From an uncultured Thiobacillus sp. (GTDB lineage: Bacteria; Pseudomonadota; Gammaproteobacteria; Burkholderiales; Thiobacillaceae): a stretch of DNA of 64,000 bases. The stretch is taken from contig CAZUVC010000009.1 in NCBI GenBank assembly GCA_964623745.1, positions 10,221-74,220 on the forward strand, given 5' to 3'. A model generated the notes under the pieces. That model did no database searches, was not told the DNA's origin, and saw only the letters and a list, made by a program, of their open reading frames with translations. Shown in pieces: positions 30,402 to 49,921 of the stretch. Position numbers and translations under genes: made by a program. How positions within the stretch are numbered: position 1 is the first letter of the stretch; each line of letters starts with the position of its first letter.

Positions 30402-31116
30402 GAATTCCGGTCTCTATGACAGCAATGTGGCTGTCGCTTTTCTGTGGCCATTGAAATGGCTTATTGGGACGCTCATGCTATATGTCATGCTTGGGCTCAT
30501 CGCCCTCACCGCGGCTTTCCTGTTTGCCAAATATCAATGGCTGGATCCTGTGCAAGCTGCCGACGCTTTGTTCCAGTCGGAAACCGCACGCGTCAAAGAG
30601 CTTGTACGGCCAGGAAGCCACGCCGCCGGCCTTTCCACACTTACCGAGCAGACCCAACAGTGGACTTACTGGCTTTTTTTCAAGGCGACATCACTCCATG
30701 AAGCCACCTATGCCTATTTCTCTGGATATCAGGTCAACGAGGTTGACCGGCTGTACCTCAGCCAGTTCGTTGCGCGCAATGCGCGGGAAATCTATCTGGC
30801 TATGAACGTGATTCAGGTGTACGGGATCAGAATTGGCTTCGTGATGGCTGCGATCCCTTTGTTTTTCCTGTTGTATGTCCTGGCTGGCGTAGACGGCCTG
30901 ACCGAGCGTTATATCCGCCGCGCGTGCGCAGGACGCGAATCGGCGGATCTGCATAAAATTGGGCGCCTCGCGAAGCTGATGTTTTTTGCATCCGGGGTCA
31001 CGTTGTATCTTTGCCTACCGGTCGAAATGAGTCCGTTCTGGATCATTGCGCCGCTGGCGCTGGTTTTTACCGTGGCCACACGGATTCAGTGGCAGTTTTA
31101 CAAGAAGTATTTTTAG
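30391..31116 (+). CDS. DUF4400-like ICE membrane protein
   Basis: DGL..RYIRRACAGRESA and QFYKKYF motifs; follows traD. Confidence 0.8.
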   Translation: MASRNSGLYDSNVAVAFLWPLKWLIGTLMLYVMLGLIALTAAFLFAKYQWLDPVQAADALFQSETARVKELVRPGSHAAGLSTLTEQTQQWTYWLFFKATSLHEATYAYFSGYQVNEVDRLYLSQFVARNAREIYLAMNVIQVYGIRIGFVMAAIPLFFLLYVLAGVDGLTERYIRRACAGRESADLHKIGRLAKLMFFASGVTLYLCLPVEMSPFWIIAPLALVFTVATRIQWQFYKKYF

Positions 31117-31214
31117 GTGAAAACCAGCCCCCAAACCCGCAACCTGTGCGAGATGGGTTTGGGTGGCGCCAGATGGGCGCTTACCATTTATTCCATTACA
31201 GGTATAATGCATGT

Positions 31215-31592
31215 ATGGCAACACAAGAAAAACCGCTCATCTGGGTCGGAGGATGCAAAAAAGACTTGATGGGCCTTCCTGCCGATGTGCGGAAATTCTT
31301 CGGTCACGCCCTTGACTTCGCGCAGCGCGGCGATCAGCACGACGCGGCGAAGGTGATGAAGGGATTCGGCGGGGCCGGCGTCCTGGAAGTGGTCGAAAAC
31401 GATATCGGCGGCACGTACCGCGCTGTCTATACCGTCAAGTTCGAGGAGGCCGTGTTCGTCCTGCATTGCTTTCAGAAGAAGAGCAAGAGCGGGATCGCCA
31501 CACCGAAAGAGGACATGGACATCATCCGCACCAGGCTGAAGGTTGCCGAGGTGCTTGCAAAGGAGCTACGAAATGGCAAAACGAATCATTGA
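31215..31592 (+). CDS. RelE/HigB (Gp49-like) type II toxin
   Basis: GTYRAVYTVKFEEAVFVLHCFQKKS; TATAAT at 31203 just upstream. Confidence 0.88.
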   Translation: MATQEKPLIWVGGCKKDLMGLPADVRKFFGHALDFAQRGDQHDAAKVMKGFGGAGVLEVVENDIGGTYRAVYTVKFEEAVFVLHCFQKKSKSGIATPKEDMDIIRTRLKVAEVLAKELRNGKTNH

Positions 31593-31908
31593 TGGCATTG
31601 AGGTCGAAATGGGCTCGGGGAATGTCTTTGCCGATCTCGGTCTGCCCGACGCCGACAAACTCAAAATCAAATCCGGTTTGGTAATCGAGATCACCAAAGC
31701 CGTGCGCAAACTCGGGCTCACTCAAGATGAGGCGGCTCGCCGCATGGGCATCACACAGCCGAAGGTGTCCGGCATGCTGCGCGGCGACTTCTCCAACTTG
31801 TCCGAACGCAAGTTGATGGACTGCTTAAATCGCTTGGGCTACGACATCGAAATCAAGGTGAAGCCTGCCGCTGAACCTCTTGGACATTTGGTGCTTGCTG
31901 TCGCTTGA
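31573..31908 (+). CDS. XRE/HigA-type antitoxin
   Basis: SGNVFADLGL, LTQDEAARRMGITQPKVS HTH. Confidence 0.88.
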   Translation: MAKRIIDGIEVEMGSGNVFADLGLPDADKLKIKSGLVIEITKAVRKLGLTQDEAARRMGITQPKVSGMLRGDFSNLSERKLMDCLNRLGYDIEIKVKPAAEPLGHLVLAVA

Positions 31909-32104
31909 CCGCTGTACTGGCGATCTCCAGTAAAGCCTGTGGTGCTTGCAGAACGATTTGATTTCGAGTTCGTATGTACGCTGAGATATTGACAAATTGA
32001 AAGAATTTAGGTTTGATGGAGGCCTAGTAGGGTCAGGGATGTGGCCAGACGAGTCTACTTGAGCAGCGCGAACGCCCCTTTGGGGCTTTATCAAGACCCG
32101 ATAA

Positions 32105-32325: not shown

Positions 32326-33420
32326 TTAAGCAGTAATTTCCTTTGCGCTCAGCTGGTAAACGAAAGTGGCTGCCTCGAGGCTGTCGAGCCGCCCCGCCGC
32401 GTTTTCGCCTTGCGGATACATAAGGAAGGGAATCGGTGCGCCGCTGGAACCCGGCAGCCTGAGGTCGTGGGCGAAGTTGTAGGCCAGCCAGTTCATCTCC
32501 CAGGCACCGAAAAGCTTCTTTCGCGCAGCAACCACCACCTCGTCCTGCAGCGTGAGGCCGGGTTTCTCCTCCAGCACGACTTTGCGCACGTCGGCCGGAT
32601 CCACCGGAACCCAGCCGAAGCCGGCCAGCCAGACCTCGGCGCGGCAATGCTGTGCCTTGCTGATGTCGCCGCTTTTGCCCAGGCTCTTGTAGCCAAAACG
32701 TGAATCGGCAACACGCACGCCATAGACGTCGCGCGCCGCCAGACCGACGGCACGTGCCAACCCAACATACAGTGCGTTGAGGTCGGCGCACTTGCCACTG
32801 AGATCGCCGGTTTCGAGCATGAAGCGGATATCGCCCAGGCCGCAGCCGCGGGTTTTGGGATTGCGCTGCGTGTTGTCAACGATCCACTCGTAGATCGCCC
32901 TTGCCTTGTCGAGATCGGATTTCGCGCCCCGGGTGATTTCCAGCGCGGATTTCCTGACGATGCCGTCCGTGGGCAGCATCTCGGTGGCCTGGGTGTAGAG
33001 CGTGCGCGTGGCCTTGTCGAGCGGCGCGACCTTGCCGGGATGGCTCAGGTCGATGGCACGGTCGCGCGTGGCGAAGCGGCTCACGACTTCAAGCGCGGGC
33101 GTGGGTTCGCCCGCGTTCCAGCGAGCGGCAAGCATGCGGGCGCCATAGACCGGGTCGCGATATTCCTGCACGCTGGCGGCGTTGCCCTGCCACAGATTGC
33201 CCATCGGCCTGATCCAGACGGCATCCTCCACCGAAGGCAGAGGCAGCCAGACCTGCGTCGCGCCATCGGCGACGGGCTCGACACGGGTGGTGACCTCGAA
33301 CACCCGCCAGCCGTGGGCAGGCTTGGGGTCAAAGCTCACGTCAGCAGCGACGGCGAAGCGGCCGAGGCCGAGGCCTGCAGCGGTCAGTGCGGTTGTTCTG
33401 ATAAAAGTACGACGGTCCAT
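32326..33420 (-). CDS. Tat-exported transglutaminase-like protein
   Basis: DRRTFI Tat motif; GKCADL, QHCRAE and VDPAD Cys-His-Asp triad. Confidence 0.85.
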   Translation of the reverse strand: MDRRTFIRTTALTAAGLGLGRFAVAADVSFDPKPAHGWRVFEVTTRVEPVADGATQVWLPLPSVEDAVWIRPMGNLWQGNAASVQEYRDPVYGARMLAARWNAGEPTPALEVVSRFATRDRAIDLSHPGKVAPLDKATRTLYTQATEMLPTDGIVRKSALEITRGAKSDLDKARAIYEWIVDNTQRNPKTRGCGLGDIRFMLETGDLSGKCADLNALYVGLARAVGLAARDVYGVRVADSRFGYKSLGKSGDISKAQHCRAEVWLAGFGWVPVDPADVRKVVLEEKPGLTLQDEVVVAARKKLFGAWEMNWLAYNFAHDLRLPGSSGAPIPFLMYPQGENAAGRLDSLEAATFVYQLSAKEITA

Positions 33421-33681
33421 CTGGGGCATCCTCCATTTCAATTTCCCGCCGCGGTGCGGAAGCCACCGCGGCATACATGCCTCGAAAGAGGCGGCGCTAC
33501 GCGCCCAGTCGACTCAGGGCCGAAAGCTGGGCAGCAAATTCGTTTTCAGCGAGACAGCAGATCGACGAGCAAAGCGCCATTCCCGGCGCGGCGGATGACA
33601 GGAGCGCTGAATGCCACTGAATGGCCTCAGTTTAATAAGCATTCAGCGTTAGAAAAGGAAAAGGTTTTTCCTTGCAAATCT

Positions 33682-36600
33682 TTAATAGCCCCGTCCCGCT
33701 TGAGTGTCCTGGCGACGCTCGGAGAGATCTTTTCCCAGCCACAGCGCATACACCACCGGAATCAGGAACAGCGACAGGAAGGCGGCGGTCAGCATGCCGC
33801 CGACCAGCGGCGCGGCGATGGGCTTCATCACGTCGGCCCCGGTGCCCTGGCTAAACAGGATCGGCAACAGGCCGCCGACGATGACGGAGACGGTCATGAT
33901 CTTGGGACGGATCCGCAGCAGCGCGCCTTCGACGATGGCTTCATGCAGCGCAGCGCGGTCGGTCAGGCGGCCGGACGCGCGGAATTGCGCGATCGCGTTG
34001 TCCAGGTACAGCAGCATGACGACGCCGAATTCAGCCGCCACGCCGGCCAGCGCAATGAAGCCGACCGCGACCGCCACCGACAGCGGATAGCCCAGCGCGT
34101 AAACCAGCCAGAACCCGCCCACCAGCGCCAGCGGCAGGCAGGCCATCACCAGCGCCACCTTGCCGGCGTGGCGGAAGTGCAGATACAGCAGCAACAGCAC
34201 CAAGGCGAGGGTCAGCGGCACCACACACTGCAGGCGCTGTTTTGCGTTCTGCAGGTGCACGTACTGGCCGGTCCACTCGATTGCGTAGCCCGGCGGCAGG
34301 TGAACCGCCCTGTCCACCGCCGCCCGCGCCGCGTTGACATAGCCGCCGAGGTCGCCGTGCGCGATGTCGACGTAGACATAGCCCGCCAGCCGGCCGTTTT
34401 CACTCTTGATCTCGGCCGGGCCGTCGGCGATGCGCAGCTGCGCAATCTCGCCCAGCGGCACCTGGCGGCCGGATGAGGTGACCACCCGGCTCGCCGCCAG
34501 CGCGTCAAGCGAATCCCGGTAGGCGCGCGGATAACGCAGGTTGATCGGAAAGCGTTCGCGGCCGTCGATCACCACGCCGATGTTTTCGCCGCCGATCGCG
34601 GTCTGCACCAGGTCCTGCACGTCCGCCACGCTGATGCCGTGGCGCGCCGCGCGCACGCGGTCGATCTCGATGTCGATGTAGCGCCCGCTGACCAGGCGTT
34701 CGGCAAATACCGTGCGGGTGCCCGGCAGCTCGCGCAGCACTGCCTCGATCGCCTGCGCCACGCCGACGATGCCGTCGAGATCGGGGCCGCCGATGCGCAC
34801 GCCGACGGCGGTGCGCACCCCGGTCGACAGCATGTCGATGCGGGTGCGGATCGGATAGCCCCAGGCATTGGTGAGGCCGGGCAGCTTGACGGCCTGGTCC
34901 AGCCGTTGGATGAAGTCCTCAACATTGCCGCCGTCCGGCCACTGGTCGCGCGGCTTCAGCAGGATGGTGGTTTCCAGCATCGACAGCGGCGCCGGATCGG
35001 TGGCGGTGTCGGCGCGCCCGGCCTTGCCGAACACGCGCTCCACTTCGGGCATGTCGCGGATCAGCCGGTCGGTCACCTGCAGGATGTTGGCGGCCTCGTC
35101 GATCGACACGCCCGGCAGCGTGGTCGGCATGTACAGCAGGTCGCCCTCGAACAGCGGCGGCATGAACTCGCTGCCGCTGCGGCTTGCCGGCCACGCCATG
35201 CTGGCGAGCGCGAGCACCGCGATCAGCAGCGTGGTGCGGGGCCGCCGCAGCGCCGCCAGCAGCAGCGGCCGGTAGCCGTTCTGTAGCCAACGGTTGACCG
35301 GGTTGCGGGTTTCCGCCGCGATGCGGCCGCGGATCAGATAACCCATCAGCACCGGCGTGAGCGTCACCGCCAGCGCTGCGCTGGCGGCCATCGCGTAGGT
35401 CTTGGTGTAGGCCAGCGGCGCAAACAGCTTGCCCTCCTGCCCGGTGAGCGTGAGCACCGGCAGGAAGGACACGGTGATGACCAGCAAGGAAAAAAACAGC
35501 GCCGGCCCGACTTCCACCGCACTGGCGCGCGCCACGTCCCAGCGGTCGGGATTGTCGCCGGCACGCTCGAGATGCTTGTGCATGTTCTCGATCATCACGA
35601 TGGCGGCGTCGACCATGGCGCCGATGGCGATCGCGATGCCGCCCAGCGACATGATGTTGGCGGTGACCCCCTGCCCCTTCATCACGATGAAGGCCGCCAG
35701 GATGCCAAGCGGCAGCGTCACCACTGCAACTAATGAGGAGCGCAGGTGAAACAGGAAAATCAGGCAGACGAAGGCGACCACCAGCGATTCCTCCACCAGC
35801 TTGCCGCCCAGCGTCTTGATCGCGCGCCCGATCAGGCCGGATCGGTCGTAGGTCACCACCAGCTCCACCCCCGGCGGCAGGCCCGGCTTCAGCGCATCGA
35901 GCCGCTGCTTGACCCGCTCGATGGTGTCGAGCGCATTCTCGCCGTGACGCATGATCACGATGCCGCCGGTCACCTCGCCTTCGCCGTCGAGGTCGGTGAC
36001 GCCGCGGCGCGCCTCGGGACCGGTCTGGATCTGCGCCACGTCGCCCAGGCGCACCGGCACGCCGCGAACGTCACTGCCGAGCGGGATCGTTGCAAAGTCC
36101 TGCAGCGACGTCAGGTAACCGCGGGTGCGCACCATGTATTCTGCGCGGCCCATTTCCACCACGGCGCCGCCCCCCTCGCCGTTGCCGGCGCGCACCGCCG
36201 CGCGCACCTGCTCCAGACTGAGGCCGTAGTGCGCCAGCCGGTTGGGGTCGACCTCGATCTGGAACTGCCGCACCGGGCCGCCCACGCTCGCCACCTCGGC
36301 CACGCCCGGCACGCTTTGCAGTTCCACCTTCAGATAGAAATCCTGCACCGCGCGCAACCGGTCCGGGTCGTAGCGGTTGGCGCGGTCGACCAGCGCGTAC
36401 TGGAACACCCAGCCGACCCCGGACGCATCCGGCCCCAGCGTCGGCCGCACGCCCGCCGGCAGCTGCATCTGCGCCTGGGCGAGGGATTCCTGCACCCGGC
36501 TGCGCGCCCAGTAGGGATCGGTGCCGTCCTCGAACAGCACGTAGATGAAGGATTCGCCGAACATCGAGAAGCCGCGCACCACGGTGGATTTCGGCACCGA

Positions 36601-36822
36601 CAGCAAGGCGCGGGTCAGCGGATAGCCGATCTGGTCCTCCACCGTCTGCGGCGACTGCCCCGGATACGGCGTCTTGACGATGACCTGCACATCGGACAGA
36701 TCGGGTATCGCGTCGAGCGCGATGGTGCGCGCGCTCAGCACGCCCCAGATCGCGAGCAGCAGGCTGGCCAGCAACACCAGCCCACGGTTGCGCAACGACC
36801 ATTCGATCAGGCGGGCGACCAT
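33682..36822 (-). CDS. cusA: CusA/SilA-family heavy-metal RND pump
   Basis: LDAIPDLSDVQVIV, AIGAMVDAAIVMIEN and EFMPPL.EGDLLYMP motifs. Confidence 0.9.
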   Translation of the reverse strand: MVARLIEWSLRNRGLVLLASLLLAIWGVLSARTIALDAIPDLSDVQVIVKTPYPGQSPQTVEDQIGYPLTRALLSVPKSTVVRGFSMFGESFIYVLFEDGTDPYWARSRVQESLAQAQMQLPAGVRPTLGPDASGVGWVFQYALVDRANRYDPDRLRAVQDFYLKVELQSVPGVAEVASVGGPVRQFQIEVDPNRLAHYGLSLEQVRAAVRAGNGEGGGAVVEMGRAEYMVRTRGYLTSLQDFATIPLGSDVRGVPVRLGDVAQIQTGPEARRGVTDLDGEGEVTGGIVIMRHGENALDTIERVKQRLDALKPGLPPGVELVVTYDRSGLIGRAIKTLGGKLVEESLVVAFVCLIFLFHLRSSLVAVVTLPLGILAAFIVMKGQGVTANIMSLGGIAIAIGAMVDAAIVMIENMHKHLERAGDNPDRWDVARASAVEVGPALFFSLLVITVSFLPVLTLTGQEGKLFAPLAYTKTYAMAASAALAVTLTPVLMGYLIRGRIAAETRNPVNRWLQNGYRPLLLAALRRPRTTLLIAVLALASMAWPASRSGSEFMPPLFEGDLLYMPTTLPGVSIDEAANILQVTDRLIRDMPEVERVFGKAGRADTATDPAPLSMLETTILLKPRDQWPDGGNVEDFIQRLDQAVKLPGLTNAWGYPIRTRIDMLSTGVRTAVGVRIGGPDLDGIVGVAQAIEAVLRELPGTRTVFAERLVSGRYIDIEIDRVRAARHGISVADVQDLVQTAIGGENIGVVIDGRERFPINLRYPRAYRDSLDALAASRVVTSSGRQVPLGEIAQLRIADGPAEIKSENGRLAGYVYVDIAHGDLGGYVNAARAAVDRAVHLPPGYAIEWTGQYVHLQNAKQRLQCVVPLTLALVLLLLYLHFRHAGKVALVMACLPLALVGGFWLVYALGYPLSVAVAVGFIALAGVAAEFGVVMLLYLDNAIAQFRASGRLTDRAALHEAIVEGALLRIRPKIMTVSVIVGGLLPILFSQGTGADVMKPIAAPLVGGMLTAAFLSLFLIPVVYALWLGKDLSERRQDTQAGRGY

Positions 36823-36828: not shown

Positions 36829-38172
36829 TCAGGGTGCGGGTTTCGGCGTGACGCGCATGCGCTGCGCGGTGTCGGCCAGCGATGCGGCGGCGTCGAGCAG
36901 GAACTGGCCGTTGACCGCCACCTGGTCGCCCGCCTCGAGGCCGTCGCGGATCGCGATGCGTTCGGCGGTCTCGATGCCGGTCGTCACTTCCACCGGCATG
37001 AAATGCCCCTTGTCCAGCGCACGCATCACGAAGTCGCCGCGCCCGCTGCGCATCACTGCGCTTTTTGGCACCGACAGTACGTCGCGCGGGGTGGAATGCA
37101 GCGTCACCGCCACATATTCGCCGATGCTGCGGCTGCGCCCCGGCGGCAGCGGCAGCCGCACTCGCAGCGAACGGGTGGCTTCGTCCAGCAGCGGATGCAG
37201 GCCCTTGAGCGGAATGCGCGCCGTCTCGCCGTCGGCAAAGCGCAGGCTGACCGCATCGCCCTCCTCCACCCACGCCAGCTGGTCGGGATAGAGCGCGATC
37301 TCGACCCACAGCTGCGCCGGATCGACGCATTGCAGCACCTCGGTCATCGCGTTCACGCTCATGCCCGCGCGCGCCAGCACCTGTTGCACCACGCAGGCCT
37401 GGCGCGCGCGCACCGGCACCGGATTCAACGCCTGTCCGCTGCGGGCGAGCTGCGCCAGCAGCGCATCGTCGAAGCCGAATTGGCGCAGGCGCAGGCCGAG
37501 CCGCTCGCGGTCGCGCCGCATCGGCTGCAGGATCGAATCGAGCTGCTCCTCGCTCTGGCGCGTGCCGAGCTCGGCCTGCGCCACCGCGTCCGGCCCCTGC
37601 GCGCGCGCCAGGATCTCGCGGTTCTGAGCGCGCCGCTCCTCCGCCATTTTCATTGCGGGCAGCGCGCGCCGCAGGATGTCGATGTATTCGTATTGCAGCC
37701 CCAGGGCCTCCTGCGAATCGACCTCGAACAGCAGCTGGCCGCGCGCGATGCGCTGGCCGGGGCGGCTCACGTGCAAGCGGGTCAGGATGCCGTCGACATG
37801 GGCGGTCAGGCGCAGCACCGCGCTTTCGTCCGCCACCAGCGTGCCGTAGGCCGGCATGTCGTGGGTCAGTGGCGTCTGCTCGGCCGCCGCCAGGCGCACC
37901 CCGAGCTTGTGCTGGGTGGCGGTGTCCACATGGATCTGGCGCGCGCCGTCGCCGCCCGCCTCCTTCAGCGCCACCAGGTCCATGCCGCAGATCGGGCAGC
38001 TACCCGGATGGTTCTGCACGATGTGCGCGTGCATCGGGCACACATAGGCCGCCTGCGCCGGCGAGGCCAGCGCATCGAGCGGTGCCGGCGACAGCGCCGG
38101 GCGGGCGCCCAGCCAGTAGCCGCCCACCCCCGCCGCCACAACCACCGCCACCACCAGGAGCGTTTTCTTCAT
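36829..38172 (-). CDS. cusB: CusB-like adaptor with heavy-metal-binding domain
   Basis: YVCPMH..CPICGMDL; GQFLLDA C-terminus; ATG 38172 after GGAG. Confidence 0.82.
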   Translation of the reverse strand: MKKTLLVVAVVVAAGVGGYWLGARPALSPAPLDALASPAQAAYVCPMHAHIVQNHPGSCPICGMDLVALKEAGGDGARQIHVDTATQHKLGVRLAAAEQTPLTHDMPAYGTLVADESAVLRLTAHVDGILTRLHVSRPGQRIARGQLLFEVDSQEALGLQYEYIDILRRALPAMKMAEERRAQNREILARAQGPDAVAQAELGTRQSEEQLDSILQPMRRDRERLGLRLRQFGFDDALLAQLARSGQALNPVPVRARQACVVQQVLARAGMSVNAMTEVLQCVDPAQLWVEIALYPDQLAWVEEGDAVSLRFADGETARIPLKGLHPLLDEATRSLRVRLPLPPGRSRSIGEYVAVTLHSTPRDVLSVPKSAVMRSGRGDFVMRALDKGHFMPVEVTTGIETAERIAIRDGLEAGDQVAVNGQFLLDAAASLADTAQRMRVTPKPAP

Positions 38173-38218
38173 TGTGCGCACTCCGAACCAGGTCAGTTAA
38201 AAAGCACATCGCGCCGAC

Positions 38219-38240
38219 AAAAAAGGGGAGATCGCTCCCC
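38219..38240 (-). terminator. Rho-independent terminator after the MCO pair
   Basis: Minus strand GGGGAG-CGAT-CTCCCC followed by T6. Confidence 0.65.
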
Positions 38241-38298
38241 CCTCACCCATGAGTCCGCCCTGCCGGTCTCCGCCGGCATGACGCTGGCCGGAGCCGGA

Positions 38299-39333
38299 TC
38301 AGGTCACGTTGATGCGCGTGCGCGCCGTGCCCATCACCGCCCCGGTGACCCAATGCAGAAACTGGATCGTCACGGTCCAGGTGCCGCGGCTGGTCGGCTT
38401 GACGATGCAGTCGTAGCGCTCGGCCGAATGCGCTTCGATCGAACCGGTTTTCCACACCGCCGGCAGCGGCCGCGCGTCGGACGCCACGACGTCGACGGTC
38501 AGGCCGCCGAAATCGATTTTCTGCGGGTGGAAGCCGGCGCAGATGTAGCGCACCAGCAGTGTTTGCCCGAGCGTCATGTTCACCGCCACCGCCGGGTTGG
38601 TCAGCGCCGAATTCTTGCCGTCCACCCCGGTGATGATGAAGTACTTGGGGTTGAGGTTGTTCAGGCCGACGTCGCCACCGCAGGTGCCGGCCGCCCAGTC
38701 GAGATTGTGCCAGGCGGGATCGATCTCGTCCGCGGCCCAGATCGCCTCGACGTCATAGATCGGGCCGCTGTAGAACGCACGCCGGGTGCCGGGCGCGTCG
38801 CCGGGCGTCGGTTTGGGGTCGACGATGAGGCCGCCGTACATGCCCATTTCCGCGTGCAGCGGCGTATTGGTATGGCAGTGGTAAAAATAGGTGCCCGCGT
38901 GCTTGGGACGCCACTGGTAGGTGTAGGTGCCGCCGATCACGTCCCAGGAAAAGTGGCCGACACCATCGTTTTCTTCGGAAGGCTCGATGCCGTGATGGTG
39001 GATCGTGTGGGCCCACATCATGTTGACGTTCAGTTCGGTGTGGACGATCTGGCCTTCGGTCACGCGGATCGCCGGCGACGGGAAGGAGCCGCCCCCCATC
39101 TGGTCCATCTGGCCCTGCCCCGCATCCAGATCGGTAAAGCCCCAAATCGCGACCGAGTTGCCGTCGTCGAAGGTCATGCGGCCGTTCATGTAGATGCCGC
39201 GGCGGAATTTGACATTGGGCGTCACGCGACCCGGGGTCGCGGGCGATCCCGGGTAGATGTAGCAGGCATTGCCCATGCCACCGCCACCGCCACCACCGCC
39301 ACCCATACTGCTGCTGGTTTTCCTCTTGGACAT
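38299..39333 (-). CDS. Multicopper-oxidase-like protein A (T1 site and domain-1 ligands only, no evident signal peptide)
   Basis: HTIHHHG and YHCHTNTPLHAEMGM in domain 1; domain 2 lacks HxH motifs. Confidence 0.88.
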   Translation of the reverse strand: MSKRKTSSSMGGGGGGGGGMGNACYIYPGSPATPGRVTPNVKFRRGIYMNGRMTFDDGNSVAIWGFTDLDAGQGQMDQMGGGSFPSPAIRVTEGQIVHTELNVNMMWAHTIHHHGIEPSEENDGVGHFSWDVIGGTYTYQWRPKHAGTYFYHCHTNTPLHAEMGMYGGLIVDPKPTPGDAPGTRRAFYSGPIYDVEAIWAADEIDPAWHNLDWAAGTCGGDVGLNNLNPKYFIITGVDGKNSALTNPAVAVNMTLGQTLLVRYICAGFHPQKIDFGGLTVDVVASDARPLPAVWKTGSIEAHSAERYDCIVKPTSRGTWTVTIQFLHWVTGAVMGTARTRINVT

Positions 39334-39349
39334 ATCGCTCTCCTCGTTC

Positions 39350-40369
39350 TTATCTGAATACGATTTCAGTCATGGCACCGAACTGGTACAGCCCGCCGCC
39401 GGCGGTCTGCGACATCTCGTCGTGCAGGTGCATGGGGAAATGTCCCGTGGTAACCGGCGGATACGCATCGGGCGGCGCTTCGAAGGGGAAGATCGCGTCG
39501 ACCTTGCCGAGCTGGTTGCGCACGTGGATCGTGTCCTTTTTCCAGATGTGCGGACGCACCGTGCCACGGTCGGTGAGCCACTCCATGTGGTTGGCATGGA
39601 CGTGCATCGAATGCGCGCACATGCCGGCATTGAGCATGCGCACCAGGGTGCGGTCACCCAGATAGCCGGACAGCTGCGAGCGCGGATCGTACAGCGCGTC
39701 GCGCGCCGGGTCGGCATGGCCGGGCGCGCCCGGCGGCAGCGAGGTGAGGCCGTTGATGGTGAAATAGCGCGGGGTGAACTTGCTGGGGATCGAGGTGCCC
39801 TGCTGCACCGCCCTGTGCAAGGCCGGGTCGATGTCGTTGAACACCCAGAACACCTGCTTCCTGAACGTTGGGCTACCGGCGTACAACTGGTCGGACTTGC
39901 CGGCCGGCATGATTGCCAGCCCGCCGTGCAGGCCAAGGAAGCGGTTGTAGCTGGTCTTGTTGTCGTAGAAGAGATACGAGCCCGCCTTGCCGGTGGGGAT
40001 GGTGTAGTTGATAGTCCTGCTGTTGCCGGGGGTGAGGTCGCCGGTGCTGGCCAGCGGCGCATCGCCCGTCTTCAGCCCGCCGATCACCAGGTTGTGCGTC
40101 GTCGCCAGCAGGTTGACCACGGTGATCTGCAGCGTGTCGCCTTCCTGGCAGATGATCGACGTGGCCGGCACGGTCAGGCTGCCGGACGATTCGCTGTAGC
40201 CCTTGAAATACACCGACACGCCGTCGGGCATGCTGCGCGAGCCGTCGGTGATGTAGAAGGTCTTGCTGATCGTGGCCGCTTCCGCGCGCGGAGACCACGA
40301 CAGCGACCCCACGGTGAAGACACTGGCGAGCCCCGCCGTGCCGGCCTTGAGAAAACTTCTGCGTTCCAT
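39350..40369 (-). CDS. Multicopper-oxidase-like protein B (Tat signal, domain-2 ligands only)
   Basis: ERRSFLK Tat motif; HSMHVH and MHLHDEM in domain 2; domain 1 degenerate. Confidence 0.85.
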   Translation of the reverse strand: MERRSFLKAGTAGLASVFTVGSLSWSPRAEAATISKTFYITDGSRSMPDGVSVYFKGYSESSGSLTVPATSIICQEGDTLQITVVNLLATTHNLVIGGLKTGDAPLASTGDLTPGNSRTINYTIPTGKAGSYLFYDNKTSYNRFLGLHGGLAIMPAGKSDQLYAGSPTFRKQVFWVFNDIDPALHRAVQQGTSIPSKFTPRYFTINGLTSLPPGAPGHADPARDALYDPRSQLSGYLGDRTLVRMLNAGMCAHSMHVHANHMEWLTDRGTVRPHIWKKDTIHVRNQLGKVDAIFPFEAPPDAYPPVTTGHFPMHLHDEMSQTAGGGLYQFGAMTEIVFR

Positions 40370-41108: not shown

Positions 41109-43079
41109 ATGACTGCTGACGCACCCACGAAAAGACAGGCCTACATTGAGCCTGTGATCCGCACGATTGCAGGCGGATTCGTCTTCGCGTGCGGCGCATT
41201 GATCTATCTCATACCGCAATGGTCGTTGCTTTGGGTTTCCATCCTGCTGTTCGTGGGATTCAACCTGTTTCAATCGGGCTTGACCACATTCTGCATGATG
41301 GAAAAACTGCTGAAGAAAATGCATTTCCGCAGTGAACTGGATGAAATCCGCAACCTGAGCAAAGCCAACGCGGAGGCGGAGGCCCGCGCCGCGTTCTACG
41401 ACACGCTGGGCCTGCTGAACGAAGTGGTGATCGAACTGGCGCCGAACGGCACCTTGGTGTTCCTGTCGGATCACTGGCTCAAGCTGCTGGGCAGCGAATG
41501 CCACAGCAATGCGCGTTTTCTGGGTCGGCCGTTCGTGGCCTTCATCAACAATCACGACCACCGTGCGATAGAAGACCTGCTAAAGGTCTTGCTGAATGGC
41601 GAGCGCGACACGATGAGCATGCGGTTCCGCATGCAGCGCGACGATCATCAGGAACACTGGGTCGAGGGAAAATTTGCCCTGTACTGGAAGCAGGGCCAGG
41701 TGCAGGGGGTGCGCGGGGTGCTGCGCGACGTAACGGAAACGCACGTGCAGGAAAAGCGCATCAGCCACATGGCCACGCACGACGCGCTGACCGGCTTGCC
41801 CAACCGGATCTATCTCGACGACCGCATCGACGAGGAAATCAGCCGTTCGGCCGCCACCGGGTCGAAGTTCGCCCTTCTGTTCATTGATCTCGACAACTTC
41901 AAGCAGATCAACGACCTGCACGGCCACAAGTCAGGTGACCAGCTCTTGAAGGAGGTCGGCAGCGTCCTCCGTTCGAGCCTGCGTTCGACCGACGTCCTGG
42001 CGCGCTGGGGCGGCGACGAATTCGTCATGCTGCTTCCTTTCACCGAGGATGCCGACGTCCCGCGCAAGGTGGCCGGCGAATTGATGCACAAGCTGCGACT
42101 GAGCCTCGAAACGAAATATCGCGATACCTTCGTCACGCTCAGCGTCGGCATCGCGGTCTACCCGGAGGATGCGGATACCGGCGAGGCCTTGCTGGTGCAG
42201 GCGGACAAGGCCTTGTTCTACGCAAAGTCACAGGGCCGGAACAACATCCAGCTGTTCGCCGACCTGCAGACCAACGCCGCCGGCTACGAAGACGTGGACA
42301 TGACGTCCCGTTTCGTCGCCGCGGTCAAGCAAGGCCAGCTCCAGGTGTATTACCAGCCGGTGATGGACGCCGCCGACCACGGCAGCATCGTCGGCGTGGA
42401 GGCCCTGGCCCGCTGGCATGACGAGAAATACGGATGGGTCAGCCCGGCCACCTTCATTCCGCTGGCCGAGAACCTCGGTCTGATCAACGAGGTCGGGCGT
42501 CAGGTGCTCGATCACGCGCTGACTCATTTCAGCCAATGCAGCGGCCGCTGCGCGGACCTGAAGCTAGCAGTGAACATTTCGACGCGCCAGCTGATGTCCA
42601 CCGACTTCTATCCCTTGCTGACGGCCATGGTGGAACGCTATGGGCTGAAACCCGGGCAGATCAAACTGGAAATCACCGAGAGCATCGCGCTGCAAGGTAT
42701 CGAGCAGGCCCGCGGCTACCTGAAAAAACTTTCGGATGCGGGCTTTACGCTCTCACTCGACGATTTTGGCACCGGATTTTCATCGCTGTCGCACGTGCAC
42801 GAATTGCCGTTCGACGAGATCAAGATCGATATTTCCTTCGTGCGCCGCATCAAAACGCCAGAAGGCAGAATCCTGGTCAAGACCATCGTCGACATGGGGC
42901 ACGCGATGCAACTGGTGCTGGTTGCGGAAGGCGTCGAGGACGGCGAAACGGCCGCGATTCTTCTGGAAATGGGCGTGGAAATGCTGCAGGGCTACTATTT
43001 CAGCCATCCGATGTCGAAGGATCGTTGTGCCGACTTCATTACGGGGCTGCAGTCGACCCCACTGGCTGCCGTGTCCTGA
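41109..43079 (+). CDS. DUF2892(YgaP-like TM)-PAS-GGDEF-EAL c-di-GMP enzyme
   Basis: FVGFNLFQSG.T.FC N-terminus, PAS, GGDEF, EAL and DDFGTG motifs. Confidence 0.9.
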   Translation: MTADAPTKRQAYIEPVIRTIAGGFVFACGALIYLIPQWSLLWVSILLFVGFNLFQSGLTTFCMMEKLLKKMHFRSELDEIRNLSKANAEAEARAAFYDTLGLLNEVVIELAPNGTLVFLSDHWLKLLGSECHSNARFLGRPFVAFINNHDHRAIEDLLKVLLNGERDTMSMRFRMQRDDHQEHWVEGKFALYWKQGQVQGVRGVLRDVTETHVQEKRISHMATHDALTGLPNRIYLDDRIDEEISRSAATGSKFALLFIDLDNFKQINDLHGHKSGDQLLKEVGSVLRSSLRSTDVLARWGGDEFVMLLPFTEDADVPRKVAGELMHKLRLSLETKYRDTFVTLSVGIAVYPEDADTGEALLVQADKALFYAKSQGRNNIQLFADLQTNAAGYEDVDMTSRFVAAVKQGQLQVYYQPVMDAADHGSIVGVEALARWHDEKYGWVSPATFIPLAENLGLINEVGRQVLDHALTHFSQCSGRCADLKLAVNISTRQLMSTDFYPLLTAMVERYGLKPGQIKLEITESIALQGIEQARGYLKKLSDAGFTLSLDDFGTGFSSLSHVHELPFDEIKIDISFVRRIKTPEGRILVKTIVDMGHAMQLVLVAEGVEDGETAAILLEMGVEMLQGYYFSHPMSKDRCADFITGLQSTPLAAVS

Positions 43080-44243: not shown

Positions 44244-45224
44244 TCATCGATCCAACGGGCTGGTTACACCTCGCCCGCCTTTATTCAGCACATGCGTATA
44301 AATCATCGTCGTCGCCACATCCTTGTGGCCCAGCAGTTCCTGCACCGTGCGGATATCGTACCCACTCGTCAGCAGGTGCGTGGCAAAAGAATGACGAAGT
44401 GTATGCGGCGTTGCCGGTTTGATGATCCCCGCATCGCGCACCGCCTGGCGAATGGCGCGCTGGATCGCCTGATCCTGCATGTGATGCCGGCGAACGACAC
44501 CGGAACGCGGATCGACCGACCGGTTCTTTGATGGAAAAACGTACTGCCAGCCCCACTCACGCCCGGCACTCGGATACTTTCGATCCAGCGCATAGGGCAG
44601 ATACACCTCGCCATACCCTTCGGCCACATCCTGTTCATGCAACGCACGCACCTGTTTCAAATGCGCCCTGAGCGGCTCCACCAGCATGGCTGGCAGCATC
44701 GTCACCCTGTCCTTGAAGCCCTTGCCTTCCCGCACCAGGATTTCGCCCCGCGAAAATTCCAGATCTTTTACCCTGAGCCGCAGCGCTTCCATGATTCGCA
44801 GCCCCGACCCATATAGCAAACCCGCAACGAGCCAATGCGTGCCTTTCAGCCGCGACAACACCGTTTGCGTCTCCTCCTGAGTAAGCACCACCGGAAGACG
44901 TTTGGGCGTCTTGGCCCGCTCCACGTCATCGAGCCATGGCATATCACGCTCAAGCACCTCGCGATACAAGAACAACAGCGCTGACTTGGCTTGGTTCTGA
45001 GTTGACGCGGCTACCCTGCCCTTCACCGCGAGATGCGTCAGGAACGCCTCCACCTCGCGAGCACCCATTTCGGAAGGGTGCCGCTTGTCAAAATGCAACA
45101 CGAAGCGTTTAATCCAGTCCACGTAAGCCTGCTCGGTACGGATGCTGTAGTGTTTAAGGCGAATCTTACCGCGTACCTGGTCCAGCAAGCGTGGCGACTG
45201 GATTAATGACGCATTCCCGTTCAT
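44244..45224 (-). CDS. intI: Integron integrase
   Basis: [19 protein letters not shown] and IYTH catalytic motifs; IntI-specific insert [16 protein letters not shown]. Confidence 0.97.
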
Positions 45225-45289
45225 GTTAGGACGCCCTAAAAATTGATAACGAATTGTTTTTTAGCACATTTTCTTAAAAGCGAATCTCG

Positions 45290-45313
45290 AATGACGGTTT
45301 ATAAAGCGTCATT
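45290..45313. promoter_or_regulatory. 24-bp near-perfect palindrome between intI and the attI crossover
   Basis: AATGACGGTTTATAAAGCGTCATT. Confidence 0.45.
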
Positions 45314-45337
45314 TAGGATGGCTACTTAACGTTAGAG
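45314..45337 (+). other. attI: attI site (crossover G/TTAGAG at 45331)
   Basis: GTTAGAGCC is complementary to GGCTCTAAC at the end of cassette 1; left limit of attI uncertain. Confidence 0.75.
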
Positions 45338-45346
45338 CCCACCCTC

Positions 45347-45778
45347 ATGTTGCAGAACTTCAAGCACATGCCGCTAATCCTCAAGCTCCTGACGGCTCAC
45401 GGCTTGATGTGTTTAATGTTGTTGGTCTTCTCAGTTATCCCGAACGGTTCAATGTCAATTGACGGAAAAGAAGTCACTTACGCTCAATGGTGGAGTAGTG
45501 GCGCTGGTGTATTTGCTTCTGCGGTTGGGTTAGCTCTGCCGTTTTCCGCTTGGCTCATTCTTCAAAAGTCCACACTCGCACGTCCTGTCTATCTATCGTC
45601 GCTCGTTCTCACCCTGGTTTTACCGTATCTCATTTTCTGGGAAAACTATGGCTCAGCCATTGCTGGTGCGGTGTTAGTCATGCTTGTTGCCGGCTATTTG
45701 TATAGGAAGAAATCCGTGGTCGCATACTTTGGCTCTAACCCATCATTCAAGCGGGACGCGCTAAAGCGCGCCCCTTAA
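45347..45778 (+). CDS. Cassette 1: membrane protein (ORF runs into attC)
   Basis: About 4 hydrophobic segments. Confidence 0.75.
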   Translation: MLQNFKHMPLILKLLTAHGLMCLMLLVFSVIPNGSMSIDGKEVTYAQWWSSGAGVFASAVGLALPFSAWLILQKSTLARPVYLSSLVLTLVLPYLIFWENYGSAIAGAVLVMLVAGYLYRKKSVVAYFGSNPSFKRDALKRAP

Positions 45779-45792
45779 TTCAAACGTTAGGG
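45733..45792 (+). repeat. attC: attC 1 (60 bp)
   Basis: CTCTAAC...GTTAGGG with internal palindrome. Confidence 0.9.
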
Positions 45793-45805
45793 ATATACAC
45801 ACCGA

Positions 45806-46078
45806 ATGACCCCACGTTTAACTTTCATGAATGCCTCGGACATCATTCGGGATGGGCTGGGTGTCGAAATCGTAGACGAAAACCATCAAACCGTTGCCGA
45901 GGTTTTTCGCCGCGACGCAGATCAAACAGTTGTCGTGAACACCTTTGGAAATGATGTTCCGCTTGATGCATTGGAAGAACTGCTTTCCTATGCGCGTAGT
46001 TACCTTGAGCCATTTGAAAATGGCAGTCCCCTCAATGAGGCCACAAATTTCGGCCTATTCGAAGCGAAGTCCAAATAG
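45806..46078 (+). CDS. Cassette 2: acidic hypothetical protein
   Basis: Sole ORF filling the cassette. Confidence 0.7.
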   Translation: MTPRLTFMNASDIIRDGLGVEIVDENHQTVAEVFRRDADQTVVVNTFGNDVPLDALEELLSYARSYLEPFENGSPLNEATNFGLFEAKSK

Positions 46079-46100
46079 GACGCTCTAAATATGAACCCAT

Positions 46101-46178
46101 CCCTAACCCGGCGCTCAACCGCGCTCCCTTCGGTCGCTGGACGGCGCTAAAGCGCCGCCGGTTAGCTCTACGTTAGGG
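46101..46178 (+). repeat. attC: attC 2 (78 bp)
   Basis: CCCTAAC...GTTAGGG. Confidence 0.9.
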
Positions 46179-46190
46179 TGCACGATCGCT

Positions 46191-46469
46191 ATGCCGATAC
46201 CTAAAGACAAACACGGTCGCACTGTAGTTGTGGGTTCGCGAGTCAGGGTTCTTGAGCTATCCCCCTCATTCTTGGAATCGTTGCCAAAAGAAGAAATTGA
46301 AGATGTGCTCTCAATGATTGGAGAGGTGTTTGAAGTGTACGAAATAGATGAGTACGGCTCTCCTTGGATTGAGAAAGGCTGGCATTTTCCAGAAGACGGT
46401 AAGTACAGCAGTCATTCCATAGCGCTCGATTCAAACGAAATGGAGTTGGTCGATGACAAAGCACTCTAA
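46191..46469 (+). CDS. Cassette 3: hypothetical protein, possible SH3/KOW-like barrel
   Basis: VGSRVRV pattern; stop lies in the attC R'' site. Confidence 0.7.
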   Translation: MPIPKDKHGRTVVVGSRVRVLELSPSFLESLPKEEIEDVLSMIGEVFEVYEIDEYGSPWIEKGWHFPEDGKYSSHSIALDSNEMELVDDKAL

Positions 46470-46541
46470 CCCGGCGCTCAACCTCGCTCCCTTCGGTCGC
46501 TGGACGCCGCTAAAGCGGCGCCGGTTAGCTCTACGTTATGC
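46464..46541 (+). repeat. attC: attC 3 (78 bp)
   Basis: CTCTAAC...GTTATGC. Confidence 0.9.
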
Positions 46542-46963
46542 ATCTAATGACTGAGCAGCGATTTCAAATAGCATCGCTAGTCGCGCCATGCACACCAGCC
46601 CTATTTGTATTCATTGGTTACCAGACACAAAGCTTTCATTGGAATTTTCTAATTGTGGGTTTTGCATTGCTTACCGGCTATTTGGGGTTTTTCATAGTTG
46701 GTTATCCTCTAATTTATCTGCTTCGTCGGACAGGCTTTCTGAGTCTTCCTGTGCTAATGCTGTCCGGCCCGGTATTAGGTGTTCTTGTTTTCTATTTTTT
46801 CTTACTATTCCTAGGTTTCCTTCTGGGGTCATCTGCGTCTTTTGAGTTATCCGCCATTCTTTGGGGCGCAGCGCTTGGCTTGTGTGTAGCACTTTCTTTT
46901 GGGCTAATCGCAGGCATAACATGGCGTTCAAGCGGGACGCCGCAAAAGCGCGGCGCCCCTTAA
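46538..46963 (+). CDS. Cassette 4: membrane protein (ORF runs into attC)
   Basis: About 4 hydrophobic segments. Confidence 0.7.
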   Translation: MHLMTEQRFQIASLVAPCTPALFVFIGYQTQSFHWNFLIVGFALLTGYLGFFIVGYPLIYLLRRTGFLSLPVLMLSGPVLGVLVFYFFLLFLGFLLGSSASFELSAILWGAALGLCVALSFGLIAGITWRSSGTPQKRGAP

Positions 46964-46976
46964 CTTTACGTTATGC
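46914..46976 (+). repeat. attC: attC 4 (63 bp)
   Basis: GCATAAC...GTTATGC. Confidence 0.9.
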
Positions 46977-47392
46977 CTAGTATGGAATTGAGCAATTTCG
47001 CGCTAGACGAGGATCTGATAGCTATAGAGGTCGGGGGTCTCTATCTGGACCTACACAACAATTTTGACTTCACCGGATACTCAAAAGAGGGGACTACCGT
47101 TGAACTCAAATGGAAGGTGACAACAGGTGATTGGGTTCCGGCTGAGATTCCCACTGAGCTAATGCTTAAATTTGAAGGTGTGTCATATCTGGAAGCAAGA
47201 GGGAATCTTGCTGACGCCACGCAATTAAATGAAATGGGTTTTTTCGAAAATTCGACCCAAGGCAATGTTGAATATAATGGAACTAATAAACCGTCAGAGG
47301 GTAGGAGTTTATTGTTGTTCCGGTTTATCGATGGCGGGGAGCTCGCTATCTCGGGAGTGAAAGCAACATGCGTAGTTACAAAAAAAGCATAA
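46973..47392 (+). CDS. Cassette 5: hypothetical protein
   Basis: Sole ORF; stop lies in R''. Confidence 0.7.
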   Translation: MPSMELSNFALDEDLIAIEVGGLYLDLHNNFDFTGYSKEGTTVELKWKVTTGDWVPAEIPTELMLKFEGVSYLEARGNLADATQLNEMGFFENSTQGNVEYNGTNKPSEGRSLLLFRFIDGGELAISGVKATCVVTKKA

Positions 47393-47446
47393 CCCTGCGC
47401 TCAAGCGGGACGCGCCTTCGGCGCGCCCCTTAGCTCCACGTTAGCC
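47387..47446 (+). repeat. attC: attC 5 (60 bp)
   Basis: GCATAAC...GTTAGCC. Confidence 0.9.
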
Positions 47447-47449
47447 ATC

Positions 47450-47893
47450 ATGAGCATTGATCCTGATTACGCCGCGGTAGCGGTTATTGCGACGGTCTTT
47501 TTTGTGGCCTTACTCTCGCCGATCATCGCTGCCAGTTACCTCTCAATGTTCAGGGGGCGCGGCGTTCCAGGTAGGTGGCTGTTTATGTTCTTCGGCCCAG
47601 CAATCGCCTATGCAATCTTGCTGGTTGCTACCGTCGCCTTTTTTCTTCCCTTCTACCTAATCGGTGTCTTTCTCGTCCCGGCCCTCCGCGATCTTGGGCA
47701 CAACCTGCCATTTTGGGTGCCATTGCTGGATTGGGTTATCAATTACGACTACCTCATCATTAGCACTTTGCTTGTCGCACTGACGGTTTGGCTGGTGCGC
47801 TATGTGTGGCCACGTTGGCCCGGTGTTCTCGCCGCCATGGCTAACCCTACGGTCAAGCGGGACGCGCCGCAAGCGGCGCGCCCCTTACCTTAA
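47450..47893 (+). CDS. Cassette 6: membrane protein (ORF runs into attC)
   Basis: 3-4 hydrophobic segments. Confidence 0.7.
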   Translation: MSIDPDYAAVAVIATVFFVALLSPIIAASYLSMFRGRGVPGRWLFMFFGPAIAYAILLVATVAFFLPFYLIGVFLVPALRDLGHNLPFWVPLLDWVINYDYLIISTLLVALTVWLVRYVWPRWPGVLAAMANPTVKRDAPQAARPLP

Positions 47894-47902
47894 ACGTTAG
47901 GC
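47839..47902 (+). repeat. attC: attC 6 (64 bp)
   Basis: GGCTAAC...GTTAGGC. Confidence 0.9.
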
Positions 47903-47909
47903 CTTGATC

Positions 47910-48482
47910 ATGAATCACAGCCGGCTCCGAGAACTTCAGCGAGGTGAATTTCGCGATCCCGCTCGCTTTCTTGTCGCGCTTCGTGCGCTTGAGCCAAAGG
48001 TCGCCAGTTCATCCCTGGGCGCACGCGTCAAACAGCTTCGGACAAATAACTTAAGGGAATGGCGCGAAGCGAGAGAGGCTGCACTGTTCTGTTATGGCAT
48101 GGCGCAAAGAATTGGACAGCCTATCTATCTGAGTCGCAGAGAATCACAAGACTATGACTTTGTAGCCTCTTGGGTCGTGGGCGACGAGCAACACTTCGCG
48201 CCCGTCCAGTTGAAAGAAGTCGTTCCCGAATCCCTCAACGCAAACTCAAGCTTAGAAAAGGTTATACAGTCCCTCACGAAGTACGCCGACTCAGAAGACC
48301 TAACGGTTGCGATACACCTGAACCGACAAGTGCACTTTGATCCGAAGACTTTAGCCATTCCACAATTGCGCATCGCTGCACTATGGGTCTTCGCCTCGAT
48401 CTGCCCTGACCAATCCGAGTGGGGCCTGTGGGGAAATTTTCTTGAGCAGCCGGAGGGAACTCGTTTTGCATATCCGGCCTAA
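47910..48482 (+). CDS. Cassette 7: hypothetical protein, possible PD-(D/E)xK-like nuclease fold
   Basis: EAREAALF...DYDFV...VQLKE pattern. Confidence 0.65.
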   Translation: MNHSRLRELQRGEFRDPARFLVALRALEPKVASSSLGARVKQLRTNNLREWREAREAALFCYGMAQRIGQPIYLSRRESQDYDFVASWVVGDEQHFAPVQLKEVVPESLNANSSLEKVIQSLTKYADSEDLTVAIHLNRQVHFDPKTLAIPQLRIAALWVFASICPDQSEWGLWGNFLEQPEGTRFAYPA

Positions 48483-48557
48483 CATGGCGGTCGAGAGGGA
48501 CGCTTGCAAGCGGTGCTGCGCACCGCTCGCAACCGCCCCTCACCTTCAACGTTATGC
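48477..48557 (+). repeat. attC: attC 7 (81 bp, divergent type)
   Basis: GCCTAAC...GTTATGC. Confidence 0.85.
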
Positions 48558-49165
48558 ATAAAGTTACATTACTGATCAAGGCGTGTTTGCTAATTGCCAG
48601 CGCAATGTCGTTGGTTGCCTGTAGTACGGGTATGTTTTTGAGGCCATCCGCAGAATCCGGCATATTAGTGAAGGAAAACGCAGCCTGTCCGGGCCCCGCT
48701 CGCGTCATTCAATTTACGCCTGACAATATAAATTGGGTTCATCTCCGTATATATGCTGTCCCTATTAATGCTGTCCCTACGAATCGGCCAAAACTGCAAA
48801 CCCAGCTAGTCATAGCGGTAGAAACGCAGGTTGGCCTAGGGTTGCCTAGGTCTGAATGGAAGGGCGACGAGTTCAAACGCAGGAGCAAACACAAGTTTGA
48901 ACTCCGTGCTGAAAATCCCGAAATCACTCTTGTTTACCCTGATGGTCGTGAGCGCGTTTTCTCAGTTTCTTTACTAAAAGGCGTTCATTTCCTCGAGTCT
49001 GAAACTATCTTGTTGACAAGGGAGGATGTGTACCTTGGCGATACTCTGCTTGACGGATTTATTATTCGATTGCCTGCTGTTTATATCGACGGCGAGAAAA
49101 TAAATATTCCGCCTATTAAATTTACGCCTGACAAAGAACACTACGTACCGGTTCTAAATTGCTAA
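48554..49165 (+). CDS. Cassette 8: predicted lipoprotein
   Basis: Lipobox LVAC. Confidence 0.72.
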   Translation: MHKVTLLIKACLLIASAMSLVACSTGMFLRPSAESGILVKENAACPGPARVIQFTPDNINWVHLRIYAVPINAVPTNRPKLQTQLVIAVETQVGLGLPRSEWKGDEFKRRSKHKFELRAENPEITLVYPDGRERVFSVSLLKGVHFLESETILLTREDVYLGDTLLDGFIIRLPAVYIDGEKINIPPIKFTPDKEHYVPVLNC

Positions 49166-49166
49166 T

Positions 49167-49244
49167 GCATAACATGGCGCTCAACCTCGCTCCCTTCGGT
49201 CGCTGGACGGCGCTGAAGCGCCGCCGGTTAGCTCTACGTTAGGT
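49167..49244 (+). repeat. attC: attC 8 (78 bp)
   Basis: GCATAAC...GTTAGGT. Confidence 0.9.
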
Positions 49245-49248
49245 TGTT

Positions 49249-49509
49249 ATGGGGATAGATGAACTAATTGCCCTTGCGCACGAAAAGCGATTCGCCGGAA
49301 ACGTCGTCGAAGCAGAAAAACTCTATCTCGAAGCAGCAAACAAAGGTAGTGGGCATGCTGCCCATGAACTTGGTGTTTTGTACATTACGGGTGGTGAAGG
49401 CTTAGAGCCTAGCTTTGAAAAAAGCCAATACTGGCTTCAAAAATCCTTAGAGTCTGGTTTTGAGGCAGCGATTGCGAGTGACCCAGAATGGTTCAAGAAA
49501 ACAACCTAA
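49249..49509 (+). CDS. Cassette 9: Sel1-like repeat protein
   Basis: AANKGSGHAAHELGVLY..G.G...WLQKS..SG. Confidence 0.78.
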   Translation: MGIDELIALAHEKRFAGNVVEAEKLYLEAANKGSGHAAHELGVLYITGGEGLEPSFEKSQYWLQKSLESGFEAAIASDPEWFKKTT

Positions 49510-49585: not shown

Positions 49586-49591
49586 ATTTCG

Positions 49592-49915: not shown

Positions 49916-49921
49916 CCAGAT

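Follow-up and report, generated by a model that had tools for sequence, protein, structure and literature searches.

The closest described relatives of the system reported here are the type C two-domain multicopper oxidases, represented by the blue copper oxidase of Nitrosomonas europaea (3G5W), a metagenomic laccase (2ZWN) and Nitrosopumilus Nmar_1354 (9CCK). These enzymes carry the type-1 copper site in domain 1 and form the trinuclear cluster between chains, a single gene encoding both halves and three copies of its product giving three sites. Multicopper oxidases share four family motifs (PMC7036934), the trinuclear cluster is bound by eight histidines, four from each domain (PMC3600357), and the characterised two-domain oxidases are described as trimers (PMC3192119). 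Here we analyse two adjacent genes, A and B, in a 64,000-nucleotide stretch of DNA from an uncultured Thiobacillus sp. (the window, by which we mean that whole stretch), between whose products the copper ligands of such an enzyme are divided.

Both genes are on the minus strand, B first and then A. The gene placement and every motif quoted in an earlier reading of the letters alone (the sequence-only reading) were found where it had put them, as follows.

39350..40369, minus strand: gene B, 339 aa, two cupredoxin domains, twin-arginine (Tat) signal, cluster histidines in domain 2 only
40346..40366, minus strand: twin-arginine motif ERRSFLK of B (TIGR01409, 17.8 bits, cut-off 16.7), kept in 140 of 141 relatives
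40076..40096, minus strand: B domain 1, HNLVIGG (residues 92-98), degenerate, both cluster histidines gone, first histidine retained in 135 of 141 relatives
39962..39976, minus strand: B domain 1, YLFYD (residues 132-136), degenerate, type-1 cysteine replaced by aspartate in 141 of 141 relatives
39596..39613, minus strand: B domain 2, HSMHVH (residues 253-258), cluster His256 and His258
39422..39433, minus strand: B domain 2, MHLH (residues 313-316), cluster His314 and His316, followed by a conserved 17-residue loop
39334..39349, minus strand: B-A spacer of 16 bases with a GAGGAG ribosome site (median spacer 14 bases in 131 loci)
38299..39333, minus strand: gene A, 344 aa, two cupredoxin domains, of which only domain 1 has the type-1 site and cluster histidines, no signal peptide, N-terminus rich in Gly and Met, Cys24 and Cys218 conserved
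38989..39009, minus strand: A domain 1, HTIHHHG (residues 109-115), type-1 His109, cluster His112 and His114
38839..38883, minus strand: A domain 1, YHCHTNTPLHAEMGM (residues 151-165), cluster His152 and His154, type-1 Cys153, His160 and Met165
38503..38529, minus strand: A domain 2, HPQKIDFGG (residues 269-277), degenerate motif with variable positions
38359..38379, minus strand: A domain 2, WTVTIQF (residues 319-325), degenerate motif, with a short hairpin in place of the long loop of B

A and B are paralogues (profile match of 98.5%, 22% identity), and models of both chains, each with two cupredoxin domains, can be aligned with 2ZWN and 3G5W across about 320-340 columns at TM-scores of 0.56-0.62. 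Type C oxidases are the best matches of A by sequence and by fold (3G5W and 2ZWN) and are among the best matches of B. The domain-1 motifs of A match those of 3G5W residue for residue (HTIHHHG against HTIHWHG, and YHCHTNTPLHAEMGM against YHCHVNVNEHVTMRGM). When ligand roles are read off the aligned positions of 3G5W and the family's four motifs (PMC7036934), A holds a type-1 site (His, Cys, His and Met) in domain 1 only, as a type C enzyme does, together with four cluster histidines, and its domain 2 is degenerate; B is the converse, with four cluster histidines in domain 2 and no type-1 site. This is the division that the sequence-only reading had seen in the two proteins, and alignment and relatives bear it out. 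The eight cluster histidines, carried on one chain in type C enzymes, are complete only in the pair, so that neither sequence fits a three-site homotrimer and a homotrimer of A or of B alone could offer no eight-histidine interface. Nmar_1354 is called a heterotrimer in PMC11761707 only because the extra domain is missing from one of its copies, all products of one gene, whereas here two divergent genes would form one site. The A/B pair is not strictly type C, but most likely works alike, with an active site shared by two gene products.

The division of ligands is conserved. Protein searches gave 779 A relatives and 633 B relatives, of which the best 120 in each set were examined, and ligands were scored in distinct relatives of at least 300 aa from fetched loci (129 for A, at least 57% identity; 141 for B, at least 48% identity). 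In A, His109, His113, His114, His152, Cys153 and His160 are invariant (129/129), His112 and His154 are kept in 128 relatives, and Met165 in 127. In B, His256, His258 and His261 are invariant (141/141), and His314 and His316 are kept in 140, the single exception being a gap. The former histidine positions of the ligand-free motifs are now variable, and these motifs are about as variable as the domains in which they lie. H-C-H at 314-316 occurs in six of the 141 B relatives and in several distant ones, always without the downstream type-1 histidine. Among the best 150 cluster representatives matched by an A profile, 114 combine a complete domain 1 with the absence of H-x-H from the domain-2 motif; the rest are intact in both domains (5), vary in domain 1 (3) or are partial (28). 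The near-exceptionless pattern in both sets of relatives therefore reflects conservation and not decay, and, taken with the 114 representatives of the A type, it makes the split old and maintained. We thus confirm that the ligand split between A and B is real and beyond chance. We note that further residues are conserved in A (His113, His127 and His209), and that domain 1 of B has a conserved set (His92, Asp136, Tyr141 and His148) at the former type-1 positions, which may be a structural remnant or a different metal site.

The two genes also travel together. Of 424 genome loci selected through A, the best 80 were taken; 79 of these have B immediately upstream, and the 80th locus begins at contig base 3. 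Of 319 metagenome loci selected through B, 79 of the best 80 were used; A lies downstream in 67, and in the other 12 the sequence ends 0-213 bases past B. Two samples had not been picked for the pair, 121 genomes of the host family and 400 genomes of the class, the counts including the window's genome. In the family, A is present in nine genomes with an adjacent B in all nine, and B is present in 12, the three without A comprising two contig ends and one broken B. In the class, B is present in 24 genomes and A in all of these (22 adjacent, two across contig ends), and three weak A matches proved to be ordinary intact oxidases. Indioceanicola plasmids carry two B-A pairs. The co-occurrence that the sequence-only reading proposed to check is near-strict in all samples; homologues are not usually found unpaired.

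Nature has joined the two halves in a constant order. Seven B-A fusion proteins were found, B always first, six of them among the best 150 cluster representatives; one fusion is encoded by the isolates Pseudarthrobacter siccitolerans and Arthrobacter sp. W4I7, and a Tat motif is clear at the start of two. WP_306633431.1 is a fusion of this kind. The fusions have four domains, with all eight histidines on the inner domains 2 and 3, and the single cluster of algal Fox1 and of bacterial six-domain oxidases likewise lies between domains 2 and 3 (PMC3600357). No six-domain form was seen among the 150 representatives. In a quick version of a tree (56 rows), fused halves are dispersed among split ones, and fusion or fission has therefore occurred more than once. 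An Arthrobacter plasmid carries a frameshifted B-A fusion (L174:8493-10840) among arsenic and heavy-metal genes.

Conserved complementary ligands, strict pairing and B-A fusions together argue, as the sequence-only reading had proposed, that A and B are the halves of one oxidase. The two proteins very probably form a complex with one active site, and a two-part, one-site oxidase located in the periplasm is a likely form of it. Several observations weigh against this reading: the relatives are non-independent observations; two pairs in the class sample are frameshifted; one class genome (G759, 72% complete) has a partial A at a contig end and no B; one family genome (G060, 81% complete) has a broken B and no A match; and the pairing counts cover the fetched loci and sampled genomes, not the surroundings of the 114 distant representatives of the A type. 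The B gene of G060 (L163:5893-6495) is interrupted after residue 112 by unrelated DNA.

In the proposed mechanism, domain 2 of B and domain 1 of A, with four histidines each, would build one three-copper, oxygen-reducing cluster, which would sit beside the one type-1 copper site of A. The chemistry would be that of the family, with electrons from the substrate entering at the type-1 copper and passing via His-Cys-His to the cluster and then to O2. Cu(I), if it is the substrate, would be oxidised at the Met-rich segments near the type-1 site, and the ligand-free outer domains would serve as scaffold. In this branch, A would be carried to the periplasm bound to B via Tat.

Other copper proteins share parts of this plan. 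Six-domain oxidases (ceruloplasmin, algal Fox1 and MnxG-like proteins) retain one cluster and have emptied the other interfaces, as in A/B; however, they are single chains with type-1 sites in the even domains, whereas A and B are two genes of two domains each, or four fused domains, with the type-1 site in domain 1 of A. CueO and CopA/PcoA have one type-1 site, one cluster, a ligand-free scaffold domain, Tat export, Met/Gly-rich segments and a link to copper efflux, but are monomers of three domains, the third of which holds the type-1 site, rather than chains of two; the three-domain family scores are far below their cut-offs (TIGR01480, 67 of 479 bits; CueO, 28 of 525). The copper nitrite reductase NirK resembles the pair in its two-cupredoxin fold (B model, Z about 19, root-mean-square deviation 3.4-3.7 Å over about 255 residues), in the type-1 site in domain 1 and in a catalytic site between chains. 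NirK uses a single type-2 copper, in a site of three histidines, and a catalytic Asp, the position of which is presumably taken by His112 in A. A NirK assignment was rejected (TIGR02376, 34 of 296 bits), the pair holding eight cluster histidines.

The sequence-only reading had placed a Tat signal on B alone and had A exported as a Tat hitchhiker. The first point holds, since the motif kept in B relatives occurs in none of the 129 A relatives. The second holds for the branch of the window, where the pattern is that of a hitchhiker, with a signal-bearing subunit and a partner without a signal, and where A would quite likely be exported bound to B through Tat; it does not extend to the whole group, as distant pairs have Sec-like signals on both genes. 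Genome G760, which has two A copies, is an exception to hitchhiking, both A genes having their own lipoprotein- or Tat-like signals (L228:1501-3113 with L197, the contig ends overlapping). Cys24 and Cys218 are present in all 129 close A relatives. Of 152 distant A representatives, 33 were scored and the others failed the pattern filters and stayed unscored; 21 have both cysteines, 10 have neither and two have only the N-terminal one, and all 21 with both lack a signal. The two cysteines, present or absent together, would therefore fit a disulfide, an oxidising compartment and hence co-export, with a metal site as the alternative.

The genes that follow A bear on the substrate.

38223..38244, minus strand: terminator-like hairpin and T run between A and cusB, a consensus match only
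36829..38181, minus strand: CusB-like adaptor with a heavy-metal-binding domain, directly downstream of A in close relatives
33682..36822, minus strand: CusA/CzcA-family RND transporter with three Met motifs

In loci at at least 72% identity, cusB is directly downstream in 35 of 36, and two distant pairs are also flanked by cus genes. The CusA protein of the window exceeds the CusA/CzcA cut-off and carries the three Met motifs; no cusC-like gene adjoins cusA in the window. A has short Met/Gly-rich segments like those of cuprous oxidases, in which Met-rich segments are linked to Cu(I) oxidation (PMC3670849). Of 133 regions upstream of B, six, all from one clade, contain a MerR-type operator; a general MerR-type score marks 19 of the 133 regions against 3-12 in shuffles and looks real in that clade only. 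The operator consists of TTGAC and a dyad about 100-145 bases upstream of B (L013, L014, L093, L095, L096 and L110, a Gallionellaceae-like clade), and similar operators occur in L102 and L018, the latter CueR-like in look. The same MerR-type motif precedes genes elsewhere in the window's genome that we take to be mercury-transport-like. From cus linkage, Met/Gly segments and operators, copper detoxification is therefore the best single guess at a role, and we put forward Cu(I) as the main substrate tentatively; copper supply to an oxidase of another substrate is nearly as likely.

Against a copper substrate, more distant loci with room to show cusB have it directly downstream in only 3 of 76 and have cusA anywhere in the fetched stretch in 13 of 76, the Met segments are short, with medians of 1 and 2 Met, the region ahead of the window's B shows no MerR- or CueR-type operator although the genome has such sites elsewhere, and the terminator-like hairpin separates A from cusB. 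Patterns for FNR, CusR, CueR and sigma-54 did not exceed shuffles in 131 upstream regions, in which a loose CRP pattern gave 38 matches against 12-16 in mononucleotide shuffles. In the best of four RNA-library runs, examined as contigs, coverage is as even over intergenic DNA as over genes, the picture expected of DNA, so the runs speak neither for nor against expression.

With almost the same likelihood as for Cu(I), the same oxidase may act instead on Fe(II) or Mn(II), on reduced sulfur or nitrogen compounds, or on an aromatic, with cusBA, lacking cusC, supplying copper for its maturation. Sulfur and iron oxidisers predominate among the named hosts of the closest 80 genome loci (Thiobacillus, Sulfuriferula, Gallionellaceae, Thiogranum, Thiohalobacter and Sedimenticola). 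Crp/Fnr-family genes are present at 17 of 160 loci, and most of the distant loci are without cus. In such bacteria, cusA-like genes lie beside the gene for thiocyanate dehydrogenase, another copper enzyme, for which PMC6504805 proposes that they supply copper, and the related archaeal type is described as oxidising hydroxylamine (PMC11761707). However, the pair has no recurrent neighbour from a sulfur, iron or nitrogen pathway, is patchy in the host family (9/121) and is present in heterotrophs, and the Arthrobacter copy lies among metal-resistance genes.

A further question is how the chains assemble. As in other two-domain oxidases, which are trimers where characterised (PMC3192119), A and B might close into a ring, A2B or AB2, and in A2B one cluster would be fed from two type-1 sites, as in ceruloplasmin. 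Genome G760, in which B, A1 and A2 lie in a row, fits a trimer and weighs against a 1:1 unit, and three tandem genes (A-like, B-like and a protein with no ligands), found in two genomes of a phylum sample of 400, show that a one-site ring is feasible. The seven fusions, however, are 1:1. In the models, moreover, the last motif is followed by a 6-residue turn in A as against the 17-residue loop in B, a loop that is conserved (0.63 bits vs 1.10 for the domain), whereas the matching part of A is variable (1.21 vs 0.99). The A-like protein of the three-gene sets retains the loop, which, to judge from the trimer structures, would pack on the next chain, and the ligand-free faces of A and B show no special conservation. 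No third, ligand-free subunit was found in the window's genome (99.99% complete) with A, B or C-type queries, nor was a second gene resembling A or B; a single-contig chromosome (G523) yields A and B as its sole matches. Of five other genomes, four show no sign of a third subunit and one has a separate three-gene set. The 1:1 fusions, the loss of the loop from A and the lack of a third subunit therefore favour an open 1:1 four-domain unit over a closed trimer. They suggest that the assembly need not be a trimer; we hold the open unit to be somewhat the better choice, and a trimer to be unlikely.

In the tree, A proteins of the two-gene systems group with the A halves of the fusions (support 97), B proteins form another group (99), and the proteins of the three-gene sets fall outside both; the three-gene version therefore looks like a separate split. 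The three-gene sets (L170:7998-12547 in G256, L171:8897-13636 in G420, and also G522:C40) have a ligand-free subunit with an Ig-like tail, and sit after a secreted protein of 1,800-2,000 aa and before a subtilase.

Inter-chain covariation was computed from 118 pairs (effective number 59). Pairs between B domain 2 and A domain 1 make up 20 of the top 30 (expected 5.2), and pairs between the ligand-free domains one of the top 30 (expected 6.3). Re-pairing within clades still gave 14-21 of 30 for B domain 2 with A domain 1, and the pattern is therefore largely one of shared ancestry. The top covarying pair, B335-A128, scores 0.55 and is the sole pair above all eight shuffles (0.42-0.48).

That A is a type-1 electron carrier or chaperone and B a copper store, separate or loosely linked and with no shared cluster, is improbable: the additional conserved residues of both chains noted above are possible metal ligands and would suit such roles, but exactly eight cluster histidines are retained, four on each protein, the genes are strictly adjacent, and fusion has repeatedly occurred in the order that joins the two ligand faces. 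That they are two decaying duplicates of an ordinary two-domain oxidase, as their paralogy and a few broken copies might suggest, is extremely improbable given intact frames, invariant ligands in hundreds of relatives at 48-99% identity and a deep clade for each of A and B; ligand conservation and intact frames exclude a pseudogene.

Around the A/B and cus genes, the window has a gene for a Tat-signal transglutaminase-like protein downstream of cusA (32326-33474) and, divergently, one for a PAS-GGDEF-EAL protein with a YgaP-like membrane domain at its N-terminus (41109-43079); signalling genes of the PAS-GGDEF-EAL kind are often upstream of B in close relatives. Integrative conjugative element genes (relaxase, coupling protein and DUF4400; 26189-31116) stop about 1 kb from the transglutaminase-cusAB-oxidase block. 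A Gp49/RelE-like and HTH gene pair lies at 31115-31988; two public runs have contigs in which the flanks of these 874 bases are joined directly, which means that the pair is absent from a related strain. At 44244-50306, an integron-type integrase stands ahead of a series of short genes, all on the same strand, that are likely to be gene cassettes.

The sequence-only reading knew of no characterised enzyme with this arrangement, and in the full-text literature searched we found no split, heteromeric or four-domain oxidase, though a mention in subscription journals, bioRxiv supplements or the classification of a large laccase database is possible. The type B domain treated in an anammox preprint (10.64898/2026.07.28.741245) is intact, not split. 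The architecture is real, conserved and has known chemistry, and is apparently undescribed. By a narrow balance, we regard B plus A as a single-site oxidase with four domains in an open arrangement. This would be an architecture so far unrecognised alongside the classes with two, three and six domains, and it would occur both split and fused, while a separate lineage would have split the same ancestor three ways. Classification relies on domain number and on four motifs on one chain, and A and B are for that reason annotated as ordinary or hypothetical proteins; if the present inference is right, either protein expressed singly would be inactive.

If true, this reading adds a two-subunit class (four-domain when fused) that is widespread in sulfur- and iron-oxidising and other bacteria, with cultured hosts in Thiobacillus denitrificans RG (the pair) and Pseudarthrobacter siccitolerans (the fusion), and offers a natural single-site scaffold for mechanistic work that is not possible with homotrimeric small laccases. 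The pairs, the fusions and the three-gene sets would together be living examples of the passage from a symmetric three-site trimer to an asymmetric one-site enzyme such as ceruloplasmin, and division of labour would have come before fusion. Intact, two-gene, three-gene and fused forms could then be compared, giving a direct test of the origin of asymmetric oxidases from homotrimers.

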